Part shown: positions 4,786 through 38,164 of the stretch, piece by piece
Position numbering within the stretch: the first letter of the stretch is position 1
Layout of the letters: every line of letters begins with the position of its first letter
NCBI GenBank assembly: GCA_951406725.2
Contig: OX597837.1
Span: 23,188,001 to 23,252,000, forward strand
DNA length: 64,000 nucleotides
DNA from: Octopus vulgaris
Lineage: Eukaryota
Direction: 5' to 3'
The notes under the pieces: generated by a model
What the model saw: the letters and a program-made list of their open reading frames with translations, nothing else
Databases searched by the model: none
What the model was told of the DNA's origin: nothing
Position numbers and translations under genes: made by a program

Positions 4786-5754
4786 CTATATATAAACGGC
4801 AGTTTGTCTGTCTGTGTGTCTGTGTGTCTGTCAGGTTGTACCCTCACCCTGACCACGGCTTTCAACCGATTCTGATGAAATTTGACACACACATAGCCCA
4901 ATGTCATAATTCAAAACTAACGCAGCGAAAATTTTGAAAAGTTCCCCCAGTTCTGAAAAAAAATCGATAAATTCGACATGGGTCAAGAATCTAAGCTTTT
5001 TATATGCAACACATTTTCTACAGACTGTCTAGGAGACGCAACTCGACCTTTTTAACTCTCGGAACACGTTGGGTAAGTATCCCAAAATATATAAAAATGT
5101 ACAAAAATGGCAAAAAAGCGGGCAGCAATGTGAGTGACAACGACGAAAAAGTCAAAAGTGACCAAACTGAACAAAAGAATGGAAAAGGTTTTTTGATGCA
5201 CACAACAAAAGCAGTTTATAATAAGCAAAGAGTTTGCAAGTAGCATCCGAGGACCCTTAGGGTACATCAATAATTTAAGGTAAAACGTTTGGGGTGGTAG
5301 TTATAAAGAAAGTGTAAACAAAAAAAGTATTCAAATAACTTGCGGCTGCAGCAGCTATTAGCAGAAGTTGGGGGTAAAGTCTCGAATGTAATTTCTTCCT
5401 GATAGGAATTGGTTGGGTTGAATTATCGATAGCTGTTTGATAGTTATTTGGGAGTGAAGAGAAGACATTGCAACCTACACATGCGCCTTCGTTCCCTAGA
5501 GGGAAAGGACTAGATTGGGATTAGTCGTTGCCTACTAGGGGCTCTTACATACCCGGGCAACGCCGGGCTATGCTGCTAGTATATACATATATGATGGGCT
5601 TCTTTCAGTTTCCGTCTACCAAATCCACTCACAAGGCTTTGGTCAGCCCAAGGCTATAGTAGAAGACACTTACCCAAGGTGCCACACAGTGGGAATGAAC
5701 CCAGAACCATGTGGTTCATAAGCAAGCTGCTTATCACACAGCCACTCCTGCGCC
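4567..5754 (-). mobile_element. SINE family A interrupted by a Helitron
   Basis: SINE halves 4567-4784 and 5580-5754 join when 4785-5579 is removed. Confidence 0.85.
4785..5579 (+). mobile_element. Non-autonomous Helitron
   Basis: 5' TCTATATATAAA..., 3' hairpin CCCGGGCAACGCCGGG then CTGCTAG; inserted at A|T with no TSD. Confidence 0.85.
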
Positions 5755-6880: not shown

Positions 6881-7354
6881 TAGAAACTGTTTAATGATAG
6901 CAAGACAAAGCATAGATAGGTCTGAATTGGACCCCTAGACCTGTGGGGCCTCTAATCAACTACCCAGTGCATCCATGTCTTAACATGGCACTGGATGTGA
7001 AAGTCACACACACACACACACATACACACACACACACACACTCTCTCTCTCTCTCTCATACCACTATAAACACACTCATACACATACACATGCACACATA
7101 CATACACATACATTCTCTCTCTTTACTCACACCACAATACACACACATACATACACACACACACACACACTTGCATGCATACATGCACACTTGCACACAC
7201 ATTTGCATGCATACATGCACACTTGCACATACACATGCACACACATACATACACACACACGCACTCACACACATGACAGACTTATTTTGGTTTCCATCTA
7301 CCAAATCCACTCACAGCACTTTGGTCAGCTCAGAGCTACAGTAGCAGACAATAT

Positions 7355-7429
<75 letters not shown>

Positions 7430-7819
7430 TATATGCAACCATATACCCTGAGCCTGCAGATTGCTTGCAGACACGTTATATAAATCCGCCTAATCTCAGT
7501 GTCTCTATGGCAAAAAACTATTTGTAGTTCTTATTTTAAATATTGTGTACATTAAATGATGTTTATCTCTCACTAGATGGAGTCCTTTTTTTGTTGAGTC
7601 TACACTAACAGAACAGGAACCTATATATATAAGGCGGCGAGCTGGCAGAAACATTAGCACACCGGGCGAAATGTGTAGCCATATTTCGTCTGCCGTTACG
7701 TTCTGAGTTCAAATTCCACCGTATGTATATATATAGATGTGTGTATATATATAATATATATTATATATATGTATATATGTATTTAGATATGTATGTATAT
7801 ATATATATATATATATATA

Positions 7820-8410
7820 TGAACAGACAAGTATGACCTTGAGAAAGAGAATCACTCTACATAAAGAACAAATCCGTTTCCTGCAAATCAGGCAAATTCC
7901 TCTTAGTGAACATATAGAAAAATGTGCAGTTAACATCAAACCAAATTTCATAGTCTTCCCCTTCTACCAGTGCAAAGACGCAATCTCTCCACAAGAATGT
8001 TTAAAAAATACAGAACACGTTTTAATATGCACGCATAACCAACTTTTATCTTTTTACATATTTCAATTCACGATTACATCACTGTACATAAATCCCCTCA
8101 CTAAACAAGTTTTTCGAAACTTTTTTGTCTGTACATATATATATTCTCCTCCCATTACTGAAAGCTGAACAGTTATCTCCCTTACCCACAACAATAACAA
8201 TAACCAATTACCTCCCCTTATTTTTCTACTTGTGAAGTCATTCACTCCTAAATAACATCACACACAACATGGACAAAATTTGTTCTTAAGAAAATACATA
8301 TTCAAATAAGTAAAACATAATATCATGAATAGCAATAGCGAAACCGGTCGATGTATTAAAAATTATATTAAAACTATGTAAAGTGTGCATATTTTACTTT
8401 TTTAATTTCT
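7820..8410 (+). mobile_element. Penelope-like element 3' fragment (GIY-YIG C-terminal half plus pLTR)
   Basis: EQTSMTLRKRITLHKEQIR...PLSEHIEKC...FIVFPFYQC matches PLE endonucleases; degenerate hammerhead downstream; (TA)n on both sides. Confidence 0.75.
8320..8354 (+). ncRNA. Degenerate minimal type-I hammerhead ribozyme
   Basis: ATATC|ATGAATA|GC-AATA-GC|GAAA|CCGG|TC|GATGT: stem I 5 bp with one G-U, palindromic stem III, core 2 mismatches from CUGAAGA. Confidence 0.55.
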
Positions 8411-9222: not shown

Positions 9223-11090
9223 GAAAACCAAGAGGTGAATGAAGATTTATTCACATCCAAAACTTTTTCATTAAAAAGTTTTCTACAGTACATATAACAA
9301 TGACCAACATGCTTCTACTGCAGTAACTGCACATTGCTCTGCATGCAATTATGCATCCTAGTTGCTGCAATTTCATCAAGGGTCCATCACTTACGACATT
9401 TTCAAAGTGAACTAATTCGAACAAGCTTCTTGTGTTCATATTCAGTTGAAGGTGATAGTGTTATGTTTTTTAAGCAAATTGAATTTTGGTCTTATAGTCA
9501 TCTCTACTGGTATTACTGTTGAATCATGGTTCTACAATGTTCATTTATATTACAGTTAATGGTAGCAGTTTTGTTTACATTTTACTGTTTGGAGTACATT
9601 ATTTATTCAGAGGTATTTCACTTATTTTGTGTTTATACCCTCAATGAATATTATTGTTATTATTATCATAATTATATTTACTAGTATTATTTACATAAAT
9701 ATCATTAATTATCACAATCATTATTTGAACTAGTTTAATTACTATAAATGGTAAGTTATGCTTATTTAAATCATTTAAATGTATATTTTGTCCAATGTGG
9801 ACATCTCATAGCCTGTTCCTGTCTAGTGCTTATAAAAGAAAATTTTGAATTGAAAATTGGATACATTTATTCCACACAAAAGTCACATCTATTATCACCT
9901 ATTCTATAAGGTTTTGCCTCACTAATTATTTCCCAAGCAATGGAAAATACTTCGTTATTATCTTTTAGTGTCCAAATTAGCTTACTAAGGCTGGTAGTAT
10001 TCATTTTGATTCTATTTCTAAATGAACTTAAATGATTGGCTACTCTTTGCTTAATATAACATGAGCTAGCTCCTGTATAGACATAATCTCTATTCTGAGG
10101 TAATTGTGCATTTGTATACAATATTTTTATGCCTACAATTATACTTAAGTGGACAGACCGTGTTCCTTGCATAATTGCATTTAATAGTTCTACTACTTTT
10201 ATTAATAGTATCCACTCCATGTTCTCTGGATGTATTTTCTATATTTTCCTGTCTATCTTCTAAGTTATTAGTCATTTGCACATAGACAACATTCTAAGTA
10301 CTGTGTTTTTTAGGATCTTCTACTTCCAGGCTAATGGGGAAGTTCACTCGGGTCTCTTCTATTTTATTGGTTGTTTATTCATGCTGATATTGTTGCTATT
10401 TATTGATCTATAATTATAATTCTGGTTACTATTATTGCTATTAGTCATATGGAAACTGTTAAATTTACTAGCATTCTGTGCTGCTATAATTTGTGTTAAA
10501 TGTTTGCTATAAAAAAAAAGTGAATCTAAACCTATGCTTATTAAAAATTCTGTAGTATTTACTGTTTTTGGAAAATGTTTAGTCAATGCCGAATAAAACA
10601 ATTTTTGTATATTGGAAATTATTGGTTTTTCGAAGGGAATTATATACTATTTGATATAACTAGAGGTACGTATGTTATCAAGGTATATATTTCTATTTCT
10701 ACCTTAAACTTTTTGTAAAAGTGTGTAACCTATTTATCTGGTTCTTATTACAGTATTGGGTTTGTTTGCTATTACTTTTGACGTTACATTTGTCAGTTAT
10801 TTGTATATTACTATTTACAGAGCTTATGTATTGATTACCTCCCCTATCTGAATGGGACCTCTTAGTAGGTCCATTCACAGCTGAACCACCTTGTACTTTA
10901 TTTGGCACAGATTCACGTAAAATTTTACTCTTTTTTTTATTTCTAGATACTCTATTGTTACAATCTAATTGCACAGACTTCCTATCTTTAACTCTTCCTA
11001 CTGCCTGTTCTTTTTGCTTAGTGATGCTCCTCATATTATGCATATTATTTTGATTATTGTCAGAATGGTCCATCCCATTACTTCAATTAT
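9220..11090 (-). mobile_element. Penelope-like element remnant (frameshifted Cys-linker plus GIY-YIG, 3' pLTR)
   Basis: KCNY..CPLKYNCRHKNIVYKC (ORF 10090-10281) continues by frameshift into YVYTGAS..IKQRVANHLSSF..TSLSKLIWTLK..IAWEII..RCDFCVE (ORF 9867-10220). Confidence 0.85.
9302..9384 (-). ncRNA. Degenerate type-I hammerhead in PLE pLTR
   Basis: Minus strand GACC|C-TTGATGA|stem II AATTGCAGCAACT..AGTTACTGCAGTA|GAAG|CATG|TT|GGTC; downstream of the GIY-YIG ORF on the same strand. Confidence 0.55.
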
Positions 11091-19845: not shown

Positions 19846-20022
19846 CATCATCATCATCGTTTAACGTCCGTTTTCCGCGCTAGCATGGGTTGGACGGTTC
19901 GACCGGGGTCTGGGGAGCCAGGGGCTGCTCCAGGCTCCAGTCTGATCTGGCAGTGTTTCTACAGCTGGATGCCCTTCCTAATGCCAACCACTCCACGAGT
20001 GTAGTGGGTGCTTTTTACGTGC
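19846..20022 (-). mobile_element. RTE LINE 3' UTR/tail (family C)
   Basis: (CAT)n + CGTTTAACGTCCG...GGATGCCCTTCCTAATGCCAACC; same sequence ends the RTE at 33930-34912. Confidence 0.8.
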
Positions 20023-32689: not shown

Positions 32690-33820
32690 TAGTTGTATTA
32701 AAAGGAACCATAACAGGACACTATATATTAAACTTGACATTTTAAAAAGGCTTGATGTAAGAGAAAAAACCAGCCACATTGCCAAAACAATAAAACTTCC
32801 AATGACTTCAGTGAGAAAAATATACGACAATAGAAAGAAAATTAAGTCAAGTGCTCAGCGAGTCACTCCTTTTACTGTCCAGCTGTTATTTTTCCATCAG
32901 TATGTGAGGTTCAGTTTGGGACAGTTCTTGGGTACACGGGAGGTTAAAATATACGGTCAGACTGTATGCATGATTTCACAAATTTTTCACAAGCAGAAAG
33001 TCTACATCAAATTCAAAAAGATACTGCAATACTTGCAAATGATGTAGAGTTTGGAAGAAGTCATAGAGAATTATGAAGCTGAGATGTTTGTGACCTATAA
33101 AGGAAGTTTATCTAATGAAAAGATGATGCTGTAAGAACAAAAGCAAGCTGAAAATACAGATGTGAATATGGAAATTCAAACAACAACACAAGATGACTGC
33201 GAAGTATATTGCTGAAGGGTTGGCACTTAGAGAGAAAAGTCTATAAGATTTTGCTGATAACGATCCTAATCATGAACATAGCATAAACATTACAAAGGGA
33301 ATTTACAATGATCTTAGTTCCTGCACTGAGGTGTAAGAAGAGACAATGTGTCACAAAGATCAAACAATTTTGGATAAGTCATTCACCCCTCAAGTAGATA
33401 TTGACGATGCTGAACTATGTGATAGGAAATAGCGTACACATCCTCCTTGTAGCATTCATTCTATCACCACTCCTCAGAAAACAGTCATCTATTGTGGTAA
33501 AATTATAAGAATATATACTACTACAGTATCATAGCACTTATTTATTCCCCAACGAATTCTACTTCAAATATTTTCAAGTATAAATAGTGTACTGCGTATG
33601 TTTAGAAATTGTTATTTTCATGTATAAATGTGATCACGTTACCTATTTTTGTCTTTTTTTTTGTTTTTGGTCTTATTTCCCACCAAATAACCATTACAAA
33701 GCATTATCACTTTATAACAGGAAAATCAATGAGGAAAATTAATTTCGCATTATAGGATTTCAGGTTATGGTGGGTTTTTTGAGGACACACTACTCCCAAA
33801 ATGTGGCAGATTCTTGTATA
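32690..33820 (+). mobile_element. pogo/Tigger-like remnant
   Basis: IKLDILKRLD...HIAKTIKLPMTSVRKIYDNRKKIKSSA resembles the CENP-B-type N-terminal HTH; heavily decayed. Confidence 0.55.
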
Positions 33821-33929
33821 TATGTGCATGTGTGTGTGTGTGCATGTGTGTGTGTGTATACAGGGAAAATAGCTTTGTGTGTGAAAGATGCACTGGTACA
33901 ATAAACAGTGGGGTAAGCTAGAGGTAGGA

Positions 33930-34910
33930 TATAGCTTCCGTTATTTATCTAGGTGACCAAGCAAGTTAGTATCAGAGGTGGATGCTCCAAGAGCATAGCT
34001 GTGAGAATAAGATTAGATTGGGTATGGTTCAGAGAGCTCCTACCTCTGCTGGCAACAAAGGGTTTCTCTCTCAGAGTGAATGGCAAATTATATGATGCCT
34101 GTGTGCAAACAGCTATGCTACATGGCAGTGAAACATAGCTGAGGACATGCATACACTTGAAAGAAATGAAGCCAGTATGCTTCCCTGGATGTGCAGTATC
34201 AATGTGCATGTTTGACGGAGTGTAAGCATCTTGAGAGAAAAGTTAAGCATAAAAGGTATTAGATGTGGTGTGCAAGAGAGACGGCTGTGCTGGTATAGAC
34301 GAGGACAGCCGTGTAATGAAGTGCTGATCTGTAATTGTGGAGGGAACGTCTGGTAGAGGTAGAGCCAGGAAATCATGGGATGAAGTAGTGAAGCATGATC
34401 TTCAAACTTTGGCCCTCACAGAGGCAATGACTAGTGACTGAGACCTTTGGCAATATGCTATGCTTGAGAAGACCTGTCACGCCAAGTGAAATCATGGTTG
34501 TGGCTGATGCTGGTATCACATTACTGGTACCTGTGTTGGTGGCATGTAAAAAGCACCTTTCAAGCATTGGGCCTCATGGAAGCAAAGTGGCTGAATTCCC
34601 TACAAGTGCTGTGCCTCACGGAGGCACTGATTGAGACCTTTAGCATTATGTCATGCTTGAGATGAAGACCCATCAAGCCAAGTACAATCGCAGTTTTGAC
34701 AGACACCAGTGTCATGCAAATGGCATCCATGCTGATTGCATGTAAAAGCACCCATTATACTCTCAGAGTGGTTAGTATTAGGAAGGGCATCCAACTGTAG
34801 AAACCATGCCAAATCAAACTGGAGTCTGGTGCAGCCTTCCAGCTTACCAGCCCTGGTCAAGCTGTCTAACCCATGACAGCATGGACAACAGACGCTAAAT
34901 GATGATGATG

Positions 34911-34912
<2 letters not shown>
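33930..34912 (+). mobile_element. RTE LINE 3' fragment: RT C-terminus, family C 3' UTR and (ATG)n tail
   Basis: GGCSKSIAVRIRLDWVWFRELLPLL..SLRVNGKLYDACVQTAMLHGSET..LERNEASMLPW; continuous into family C sequence. Confidence 0.85.
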
Positions 34913-34993
<81 letters not shown>

Positions 34994-35138
34994 AAAAGCA
35001 ATAAAGATTCAAGTTAATTTAAATGAATTTACTTGAATATGGTACCTAACTTAGATGCACCAAAAAAAACTATACTGTTTTAACAATACAATAATGTGGG
35101 GTGATTATAAGCAGAAAGAAGCAACAAGAATGGATAGG

Positions 35139-35229
35139 TTTTAGTACAATCGTTTCATACAAGGACAGGCTTTATTAAAAGTTGCAAAAATTACAGCATA
35201 TAAACGTGTCCTGTACTCATCAGCTAAAA
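35139..35229 (-). ncRNA. Type-I hammerhead ribozyme (left arm)
   Basis: Reverse-complement twin of 35628-35716 with full CTGATGA/GAAA/GTA core. Confidence 0.8.
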
Positions 35230-35627
35230 TACATGTGAGTTCTCTAGACATCCTATTGGTTGAGGCTATACTCATGAAGTAGATAATTAAGTAACATAAA
35301 CAGATTTCCAAAGTTCATTAAAGTTCTTTAAAGATGATGTACAGTCTTATCACAGAATTTTAAAAAAGTTTTAATAGCATCACAGAGGTGACCTAATCCA
35401 TAGTGCACATATGAATTCCCAGATGAATATCTCTGGAAATTCATATGTGCACTATGGATTAGGTCACCTTCTCTGTGATGCTGTTAAAACTTTTTTAAAA
35501 TTCTGTGATAAGACTGTACATCATCTTTAAAGAACTTAATGAACTTTGGAAATCTGTTTATGTTACTTAATTATCTACTTCATGAGTATAGCCTCAACCA
35601 ATAGGATGTCTAGAGAACTCACATGTA

Positions 35628-35716
35628 TTTTAGCTGATGAGTACAGGACACGTTTATATGCTGTAATTTTGCAACTTTAATAAAGCCTGTCCTTGTATGA
35701 AACGATTGTACTAAAA
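35628..35716 (+). ncRNA. Type-I hammerhead ribozyme (right arm)
   Basis: TTTTAG|CTGATGA|GTACAGGACA..TGTCCTTGTAT|GAAA|CGATTG|TA|CTAAAA: stem I 6 bp, long stem II, near-palindromic stem III; predicted cleavage after A35710. Confidence 0.8.
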
Positions 35717-35745
35717 ACCTATCCATTCTTGTTGCTTCTTTCTCG

Positions 35746-35829
<84 letters not shown>

Positions 35830-35920
35830 AGGAGAATTCATGAAAAAAACAAAAGGATGAGGACAGGTGGTGTAGATAACAAACAGATGTATCAGTATAA
35901 CGCTCGGGAATTGAAAAAGT

Positions 35921-35956
35921 CTTTAACATTTTGAGCCTACGCTCTTCCTCAGAAAG
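35921..35956 (-). ncRNA. CpG-decayed mini-hammerhead in a PLE-like terminal repeat (35828-35990)
   Basis: Minus strand CTTT|CTGAGGA|A-GAGC-GTAG-GCTC|AAAA|TG|TT|AAAG; restoring two CpGs gives CGAAACG. Confidence 0.5.
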
Positions 35957-36019
35957 GAACACAGAAAGAAACAAGGAGAGAAAAAAATTTGTGCCAGTGA
36001 TAGATATGAATACATGTTG

Positions 36020-36150
36020 TAAGGTGGGTGGTCCAATAATTTGTAGCCAAAGTTGCCTATTTTCTGTAGAGTTTTATATGTTGTGTGTGCTGGTGCATTG
36101 TCCTGTAAAAACAGGACACTATGTCTCAGCTTTCTACACCATTTCTGCTT
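36020..36150 (-). mobile_element. mariner catalytic-domain fragment
   Basis: LFLQDNAPAHT...GYKLLDHPPY. Confidence 0.7.
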
Positions 36151-37069
36151 CAAAGCTTTGACAGGCTTCTTTCAGTTTCCTTCTATCAAATCCACAAATT
36201 GTTAGGCAATAAGGGAGACAACTGCAGAGAAGAGTGACTGTAGAGATAAGAGATTGTTGCAGAGAGAGAGAGAGAGTGGGGACCATTGTAGAGAGGGGAG
36301 TGTACAATTGTGTAGCAGTGTATCCATCATGCTTATCTTCCAAGTTCTGTCTTCTTGTCCATCATTTTTTTTTCATATCTGGCTCAACCTGATTGGCTAT
36401 TTTACTCAGCCTAACCTTGTTCACAAACCACAAAGTTCCTTCTATTTGTTGGCTAAAAATATATCATTTCCCTTGTCTTGATTGGTTTATTCTCAGTGAG
36501 CCTGTTTGAAACAAACAGAAATCAATATTGTAATATTGAACAGATACTGTTGCTTTAAACTATAACATATCTACTGCAACAGAAGAAGTAAAATAGACCT
36601 ATTCACTCACATTCAGCTTCTAGCATCAGCAGTTCATCATAATTATATAAGAAATGTAATGAAATTATCAGATAATTATACACTTGAGGTGATCAGAAAC
36701 AAATTCCTATTGAAAGTTTACATTGAGAATGCTTTAAAATCTGTAATTAATATCTTCGTTAATTGAAATAATAGCTGTTATCATTTCAAAAATGACAATA
36801 ATAGTTGCACTAAAATGTTGAGTATTACTTATATAGTTTATTAAACAGAACAACATTGCAAGTTAGAATTTGCTGTGCCAAAAAGGTTAGGAGTTACAAT
36901 ATTGAAGAAAAGTTTGTAAATTGAATGATGGATTTAACATTACCATCAAGTGTTGCCAGAATTGGCTGGCTACACAAGTGGCTGACTACGCTACTGTTCA
37001 GGATAACAGATTATCACGTATATGTTTTTAATTTGGGTTACTGGCTAGTTTCAAGAGTTTAATTTTTAA

Positions 37070-37301
37070 CCCTTTTGTTACCATATTTCTATTAGAATAC
37101 ATTGCCTTTGACATGTTTGATTTGGAAACTTATGAAGTGTTCAGTAAAAACAACAAAGAATTTAGTAAAGTAACTTTTGTTGTTGGGAATATAAACTAAC
37201 AAAGAACTTTGATGGAAGAGTTTTGATTTAGATCTCTTTAAAACAGGAAGGTTCTGTCACGGAGCTAAAAGGTGCTGTCTGGCGAGTTGGTATCAGAAAG
37301 A
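37070..37301. mobile_element. piggyBac-type MITE, degenerate
   Basis: TTAA|CCCTTTTGTTACC ... GGTATCAGAAAGA|TTAA; internally similar to 57833-58052 in reverse. Confidence 0.6.
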
Positions 37302-37685
37302 TTAAAGGTAAAAACATTATTGTGTATCATATGAAATCCTCCTCCTTCTTCTCATTTCCTCCTCCTCTCCTCCCCTCTCCCCTCTCCTCCCTCATCTCCT
37401 CCCCTCTCCCCTCCTCTCCTCCCCTTCTCTTCCTCCTCACTATCATCGTTGTTGTCGTCATCATCGTCATCATCGTCATCATCATCATCATTGTTGTTGT
37501 CATCATCATCGTAATCGCCATCCTCCTCCTCCTCCTCCTACCACCCCCTCTCCTCCTCCTCCTCACTATCATTGTCGTTGTTGTCATCATCGTCATCATC
37601 ATCATTGTCGTTGTCATCATCATCGTCATTGCCATCCTCCTCCTCTTCCTCCTCCTCCTCCTCATCATCATCATCATCATCAACA

Positions 37686-37719
<34 letters not shown>

Positions 37720-38164
37720 CATTCATTTTTCCATGTTGGCATGAGCTGGATGGTGTGGCAGGAGCTAGCAAGCTGGAGGGCGGCACCAGGCTCTAGTCGT
37801 CTATTTATGGCACGTTTCTATGGCTGGATGCCCTTCCTAATGCCAACCACTTTACAAAGTGTACCAGGCATTTTTCATGTGGCACCAATACGGGTCCTGT
37901 TCATGTGATGCTGGTGCAGGTATCTTTTACGTAGTGCCAGCACAGGTGCCATCTACATGGCACCAGCACTTAACTTTATAAATTAGACCCAGCCTTCAGA
38001 CAGTCCTTACATATATTCTCTTTTACCGACTTTCTTTTACTTATTTCTGTCACTGGACTGTTGCCATTTTAAGGCACTGATTTAAAGAATTTTACTTGAT
38101 CATTTCAATCATAGAACTAATATTTTAAAACCTGGTTCTTATCTTATCAATCAACATCATCATC

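Follow-up and report, generated by a model that had tools for sequence, protein, structure and literature searches.

Is a palindrome that carries a hammerhead ribozyme on each strand a mobile unit in its own right, or the product of an element of known type, and how did its two arms arise? We addressed this for one locus of Octopus vulgaris, within a stretch of 64,000 nucleotides (the window) whose numbering is used below. Alignment recovered the predicted palindrome as two inverted arms (35106-35423 against 35432-35751) with 8 unpaired bases between them, and these bases (35424-35431) form the inversion junction. The arms differ by five gaps of 1 nt, one gap of 3 nt and three substitutions, and both stop within about 5-11 nt of one template position. 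The left arm (35112-35423, minus strand) was found to be an inverted, 5'-truncated pLTR representing the 3' end of an element, with 97-99% identity to other copies in the genome. The right arm (35432-35745, plus strand) is a 5'-truncated pLTR without a tail.

The original prediction had this unit, placed at 35113-35743, flanked directly by (TA)n, and that part did not hold. The left (TA)n microsatellite used as target (34911-34991) ends at 34991, and the interval 34992-35111 (minus strand) is a tail of about 120 nt belonging to the element, which stops at the fixed "long" end of the family. In full-length copies the tail continues to the start codon of the open reading frame (ORF), 54 nt further. 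The right arm extends about 36 nt past its hammerhead cut site, to the fixed "short" end, and is followed by the right target microsatellite (35746-35827). The whole insertion thus defined (34992-35745) is asymmetric: a tail is present at one end and absent from the other. (TA)n also borders other copies. The target (TA)n is preceded, at about 34400-34910, by a repeat ending in (GAT)n. Its translation motif was also found at 19884, 51138 and 59913, and it is probably a common SINE-like repeat.

As predicted, there is one complete type-I hammerhead per strand, at 35139-35229 on the minus strand of the left arm (predicted cleavage after A35145) and at 35628-35716 on the plus strand of the right arm (predicted cleavage after A35710). 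Both face outward and consist of a 6-bp stem I, CUGAUGA, GAAA, A-CGAUUG-U and a GUA site, with a long stem II that is closed by a G-U pair; stem II of the plus-strand copy contains an inner hairpin. The descriptor used in the scan matched these two in the window and none in 30 simulated 64-kb windows. The Rfam hammerhead models gave no match at E<=10 in the region 33000-38000, probably because stem II and loop II together measure 58 nt. Sub-threshold Rfam matches of miRNA and snoRNA models to the hairpin and to repeats were set aside as chance.

The hammerhead structure was examined for covariation in nine sequences, drawn from the family of the window copy and from a family about 70% identical to it. 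The 25 proposed pairs were paired in 89.7%, and two-sided changes were present at 10 of them. The covariation value was 0.317, compared to 0.158 for shuffled sequences (reached in 0 of 500) and at most 0.10 when the structure was slid along the alignment; as the sequences are related and the structure was partly derived from the same alignment, this is support for, rather than proof of, selection on the fold. Read in that way, covariation across families supports a type-I hammerhead core with stems I-III. The pair closing stem II was G-U in five of the nine sequences and G-C in four. The G-U pair had been proposed to be older than the duplication of the arm, which agrees with its family-wide occurrence and with its presence in the published Hydra hammerheads of Penelope-13_HM and Penelope-17_HM (supplement of PMC8557442).

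Stem III has two base pairs. In the predicted minimum free energy fold of the monomer the hammerhead core is mispaired, and pairing between two copies is predicted at -5.8 kcal/mol, in line with the suggestion that stem III is fit for dimer formation. In the distant family (L114-L126) stem III is often a full Watson-Crick palindrome. At the window locus the two ribozymes lie on opposite strands, so that no dimer can form within one transcript. A read-through RNA of the whole palindrome is predicted to fold into a hairpin of -517 kcal/mol. Such a transcript holds a single sense ribozyme, for which pairing with the antisense arm, and hence no activity at this locus, is predicted. Both hammerheads are best read as passengers carried by the pLTR. 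From the modelled fold, a role of the palindrome RNA as a double-stranded substrate of ADAR is plausible.

When an arm was compared to the 2.8-Gb genome of 227 contigs (G000), the best 40 candidates gave 48 matches, mostly of 98-99% identity. A 25-mer of the hammerhead had 130 exact matches in the genome and a 24-mer of the tail 530, and a looser hammerhead pattern gave 1,028 matches, related families included. Full-length copies were found at L031, L067 and L100, with a unit of 4,599-4,866 bp and a partial tandem arrangement pLTR-ORF-pLTR, with or without an inverted 5'-truncated copy. In L031 and L067 the pLTR leads into the tail and, 54 nt on, into the ORF, and the second pLTR ends at the short site. 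The ORF is intact in L067 (949 aa) and in L100, which belongs to a sister subfamily and has a frame of 981 codons.

Several further copies and relics were observed. L100 and L101 (G000:C2:37.617-37.628 Mb) are two full-length copies placed head to head, of which one outer end is short and the other long. Extra matches of 72-82% inside the pLTR of the sister subfamily (L100-L104, L111, and L113) suggest internal repeats upstream of its hammerhead. A further short-ended copy in (TA)n lies beside an earlier insertion (L106:1505-1682). The window itself also holds, at 9765-10097 on the minus strand, the degraded remains of a different Hydra-type endonuclease (35% identity, E 9e-5), accompanied by an Asn-rich frame at 10699-11082 on the same strand. 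Neither a hammerhead nor an inverted copy was identified near this relic.

We used the ORF to assign the element to a clade. The predicted protein model had a mean pLDDT of 73 and its six best fold matches were all telomerase RTs. The C-terminus resembles GIY-YIG proteins, and RT look-alikes were also found, while Pfam and PDB sequence searches with the ORF returned nothing relevant. The L067 protein (P0020) has RWK at 64 and DKT at 151, and also YRDD and YIG. In the linker and endonuclease (EN) it has CxCx5C at 837, CxxC at 934 and CxH at 964. A CCHH motif was absent as judged by eye, and the only match to GxKY (at 584) lies within an Asn-rich linker, hence the N-terminal GxKF/Y is not conserved. 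The Hydra clade as defined in Craig et al. (2021, PMC8557442) has RWK, a change of DKG to DKT, CxCx5C, CxxC/CxH, no CCHH, and no conserved N-terminal GxKF/Y, and section 11 of that paper adds (TA)n targeting and a canonical hammerhead. Both insertion into (TA)n and a canonical hammerhead in the 3' pLTR are present in the parent family. The unit of 4,599-4,866 bp is longer than the Hydra length, which is given descriptively as "generally" under 3 kb. The N-terminus and the RT motifs could be aligned by eye with Hydra-1_Obim. Two low-confidence Asn-rich inserts occupy residues about 510-605 and 690-835 of P0020, with 30% Asn over 560-830; N-rich inserts are also described for Adineta Penelope elements in the compared part of PMC3846280. 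Naiad, suggested by the cysteine linker, was ruled out by the C-terminal EN and by DKT, and Neptune/Nematis were ruled out on their linker and EN motifs. Judged from motifs, modelled fold matches, targeting and hammerhead, the parent appears to match a Hydra-clade Penelope-like element (PLE).

We are thus highly confident that the palindrome consists of head-to-head 5'-truncated pLTRs of a young, autonomous Hydra-clade PLE in (TA)n. The original prediction was right in calling it young and PLE-derived, as seen from near-identical pLTR copies and from a parent with an intact RT-EN ORF. Its description as coding-free is correct for the copy in the window; elsewhere the same arm is joined to a full RT-EN ORF. 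The proposal of an undescribed non-autonomous, retrozyme-like family had to be given up, since elsewhere in the genome the arm was found as the pLTR of an autonomous element, an outcome that the prediction had itself named as speaking against it. An octopus repeat library (PMC13282606) lists 31 recently active Penelope-like families, and its main text makes no mention of Hydra, hammerhead or palindrome; the parent family may already be present in that library. In the literature compared here we met no description of the parent Hydra family.

The two outer ends of inverted insertions were found to follow a strict pattern. In 56 of 57 classifiable inverted pairs, drawn from 81 loci that were sampled from the first matches of each search and not at random (the other 24 loci being single or unclassified by the script), one end was long and the other short (p = 8e-16 against 50%). 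The exception was one pair with two short ends (L061), and no pair among the 57 had two long ends. Both ends also occur in single copies, and the short end can be the sole end. The second Hydra-like family (L114-L126), about 70% identical and with 694 pattern matches, behaved alike: the first 100 of these matches included 13 pairs, each with the tail on a single arm. Of the 13 other arms, eleven stopped in (TA)n at the counterpart of the short site, one stopped there in another repeat, and one was broken. The tail is 119 nt in the window family and about 100 nt in the distant family, and the short site lies about 36 nt past the ribozyme cut in both. Each of the two ends coincides with a TA-like word of the element, similar to the target sequence.

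This last property raises the alternative that the ends are not RT starts but endonuclease cuts of a double-stranded DNA intermediate at the TA-like sites of the element. The target-like words at both ends agree with it, and Craig et al. favour such an origin for the tail in the compared part of PMC8557442. It leaves unexplained why 56 of 57 pairs would receive one cut of each kind, and the tail ends of the Anolis element were mapped as RT starts in the compared part of PMC11167929. We consider resolution by the endonuclease improbable.

At the short ends the base beside (TA)n is in many cases a G, in place of the T of the internal template. This was the case for exactly 28 of 59 short arms, and for more if CpG decay is allowed for; examples are L009, L010 and L016, and L115, L120, L121 and L126 in the distant family. 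The extra G shows no link with haplotype, and in the distant family it is found again at the corresponding position. It may be a non-templated C added at the RT start or a base derived from the target. Slippage of CG as its source was rejected, as the distant family has the same G without a CG repeat.

An inverted junction was present in 54 of 69 loci, and the junction positions were scattered. In 17 of the 54 the fold-back was symmetric, meaning that both arms ended no more than 10 nt from one and the same place on the template, compared to a mean of 1.8 and a maximum of 8 expected from 20,000 permutations. Such symmetric fold-backs therefore make up 17 of the 54 inverted insertions sampled, and the locus is not the "one-off truncated insertion" considered at the outset. 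The symmetric junctions span reference positions 7216-7993, with one at 5529 in the sister subfamily. The sister subfamily has further symmetric fold-backs, with arms of up to 2.7 kb; at L102 (G000:C1:224.764-224.770 Mb) the arms, about 2.7 kb each, extend into the ORF.

These junctions bear on the suggestion that a non-autonomous palindromic family, retrozyme-like or MITE-like, is mobile as one unit. The window copy is coding-free, and a genome-wide search with the pattern of its junction returned one other near-match, L051, whose fold-back point is only a few bases away; one further junction was found twice, at L063 and L079. The fold-back point nevertheless varies by copy, with symmetric junctions at many positions, which speaks against a palindromic family with fixed ends. 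L051 has flanks unrelated to those of the window, and both of its arms carry a variant that is absent from the window. The shared junction of L063 and L079 is oppositely oriented relative to the tail. Same-strand tandem hammerheads, which retrozymes need, were not seen. We regard a family of this kind as very unlikely.

The possibility that the second arm is a fold-back artefact of the assembly or of long reads was also considered. The arms of the window differ from L067 by 7 deletions and 0 insertions, symmetric palindromes carry 5.1 deletions per kb compared to 2.7-3.0, and the arms of L071 and L072 are full of deletions. Some of the differences between the window arms are probably consensus errors, and base errors in hairpins are likely. 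A chimera, however, would mirror the flank and the end as well, and the flanks and ends at the window locus differ. Exactly mirror-symmetric joints at positions other than the window junction (35135/35136-35721, 35281-35576, and 35367-35491) were moreover found in short-read contigs of the public run X1, where symmetric joints were 4 of the 15 joints listed and fell in three places. The fold-back class is therefore not a long-read artefact. None of the contigs listed for run X1 and the putative DNA runs X2, X8 and X13 bridges the centre of the window palindrome (depth 53, 34, 0, and 0 at 35400-35424), which, with X1 and X2 covered to 76-80%, is evidence neither for nor against the junction. 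An artefact is in our judgment extremely unlikely.

The two arms of a pair were found to be of the same haplotype. Paired arms had 77 shared variants and 64 single-arm differences, while random pairing gave a mean of 3.8 shared variants. The arms of the window itself carry the majority haplotype and are uninformative in this respect. A shared haplotype fits copying of one arm from the other, or conversion between arms, equally well.

Microhomology of at least 3 nt was present at 14 of 29 insertion-free junctions, against 7% by chance; the 24 of 54 junctions that hold inserted or mismatched bases were not scored, and L049, where the reference would be compared with itself, was left out. Locally templated insertions of 6-29 nt were observed at the inversion centre of L045, L050, L059, L062 and L086, and these we take to resemble polymerase-theta end joining. 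L054 has a clean snap-back junction with a 4-bp stem and a 7-nt loop, and L051 and L092 have centres without a loop. Among 33 asymmetric pairs the tailed arm was the longer in 17 and the tail-less arm in 16, and at L050 the tail-less arm measures 3.4 kb against 0.46 kb for the tailed arm. L079, L082 and L083 have a tailed arm with a fold-back stub of only 30-43 nt, which falls short of the short site.

We propose that the insertions arise by priming from both target strands on one RNA. The GIY-YIG endonuclease would cut both strands within (TA)n, and on a single element RNA one 3'-OH would prime at the end of the tail while the second would use the short site. The two proposed start sites are 119 nt apart and both are TA-like in the RNA. 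cDNAs that stop independently would give asymmetric copies, and cDNAs that stop at the same RNA end or block would give perfect palindromes, as at the window locus; microhomology-mediated end joining of the cDNA 3' ends would then close the centre. If two strands prime one RNA at one site each, one long and one short end, arms of the same haplotype, and either arm being the longer all follow. In Anolis, a PLE protein was found to cut and extend both target strands, with two internal starts that bracket the tail; both strands of the target used both start sites in vitro (compared part of PMC11167929). The pairing rule therefore follows only on the further assumption that a single RNA is used. 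The mechanistic evidence presented here consists of genomic end products throughout, and the snap-back appearance of L054, the stubs of L079, L082 and L083, and the two short ends of L061 speak against two-strand priming.

L054, L079, L082 and L083 are accommodated by self-priming, in which a cDNA started at the tail folds back, is copied into a hairpin and becomes linked to the target through the TA-like short site; in a variant, proposed in the compared part of PMC3846280, an antisense RNA folds back. Self-priming was put forward for head-to-head PLE palindromes by Arkhipova et al. (2013, PMC3846280). It accounts for the shared haplotype, the symmetric class and the microhomology as well as for L054 and the short stubs, with asymmetric copies arising later by deletion at the unstable centre of a palindrome. 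However, a fold-back from the short site cannot build a tail, and the tailed arm would have to be made first and be the longer. With the tail-less arm longer in 16 of 33 asymmetric pairs, large secondary deletions would be needed. Single copies moreover exist whose only end is the short one, and self-priming is impossible at the zero-loop centres of L051 and L092. We regard self-priming as a real but rather unlikely alternative. For Hydra-clade identity and two-strand priming of one RNA from two starts, taken together, we estimate a probability of about 0.58. Its more specific form remains tentative, at slightly less than even odds: a duplicating kind of twin priming in which a protein dimer would cut (TA)n, each strand would start at its own site bracketing the tail, the strict end rule would result, and hairpins would be seeded.

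The formation of PLE inverted repeats and tails is named as an open question in PMC8557442, and the family described here allows it to be counted and tested. Published features of PLEs already include head-to-head copies that bear a hammerhead per strand and have one of their arms tailed. In the open-access literature, as far as its compared parts go, we found no strict end-pairing rule, no symmetric class and no twin priming for PLEs. The locus is an ordinary product of a known class; its value is that it leads to a young family in which intact ORFs occur and of which over 100 nearly identical copies exist. The near-absolute end-pairing rule, the symmetric class and the arms of the same haplotype place tighter limits on the mechanism than do the qualitative descriptions compared, and the tail of 119 nt places the starts far enough apart for a simple in vitro assay. 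Annotators should be aware that such palindromes mimic MITEs, miRNA precursors and retrozymes. If the proposal is true, a young family seeds the genome with ribozyme-bearing hairpins with arms of 0.13 to 2.7 kb, and these loci could feed RNA editing or small-RNA pathways.

In L1 twin priming two target strands prime one RNA, which gives an inversion with a microhomology junction, and the inverted parts do not overlap. Here, in contrast, one region is present twice and each of the two starts is at a fixed site. Poseidon_Ac (Frangieh et al., 2024; compared part of PMC11167929) resembles the present family in that two ends past the hammerhead bracket the tail and the targets are AT-rich; both strands are cut and extended, and a dimer is predicted. 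It belongs to another clade, and the starts proposed here differ in being 119 nt apart, TA-like, and upstream of the ORF start, not within the ORF. Inverted insertions are not addressed in the compared part of that paper.

As far as their published descriptions were compared, the Hydra-clade PLEs Hydra-1_Obim and Penelope-13_HM share with our family the same motifs, a C-terminal GIY-YIG, (TA)n targeting and a 3' hammerhead. Penelope-13_HM is also listed with an inverted 5'-truncated copy, a hammerhead per strand and a G-U closure of stem II (PMC8557442). The present elements differ from them by a length of 4.6-4.9 kb instead of generally less than 3 kb, Asn-rich inserts in the ORF, a stem II/loop II of 58 nt and a tail of 119 nt, and their hammerhead sequence is unlike that of Hydra-1_Obim, which makes them another family. 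Palindromic PLE insertions in the compared parts of PMC3846280, PMC4209133 and PMC8557442 have head-to-head pLTRs, a tail on one arm and palindromes at the junction, as here. Among them are the dual hammerheads of Schistosoma, which occupy opposite strands at a distance of 100-700 bp and were attributed to truncated PLEs (PMC4209133). The standard anatomy given in PMC8557442 and PMC3846280 includes an inverted 5'-truncated copy and a tail of 30-40 bp that is optional or "often at one end", whereas the tail here is 119 nt and on exactly one arm (56 of 57 pairs; 13 of 13 in the distant family). Symmetric inversions are a third of those found here, which goes beyond the compared descriptions of palindromic PLEs. 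Animal non-LTR retrozymes are described in the compared parts of PMC7229834 and bioRxiv 10.64898/2026.07.22.740005 as head-to-tail tandems with a hammerhead per unit and a circular RNA. The window copy shares with them the type-I hammerhead, the PLE ancestry and the lack of coding sequence, but it is an inverted pair on opposite strands instead of a tandem unit.
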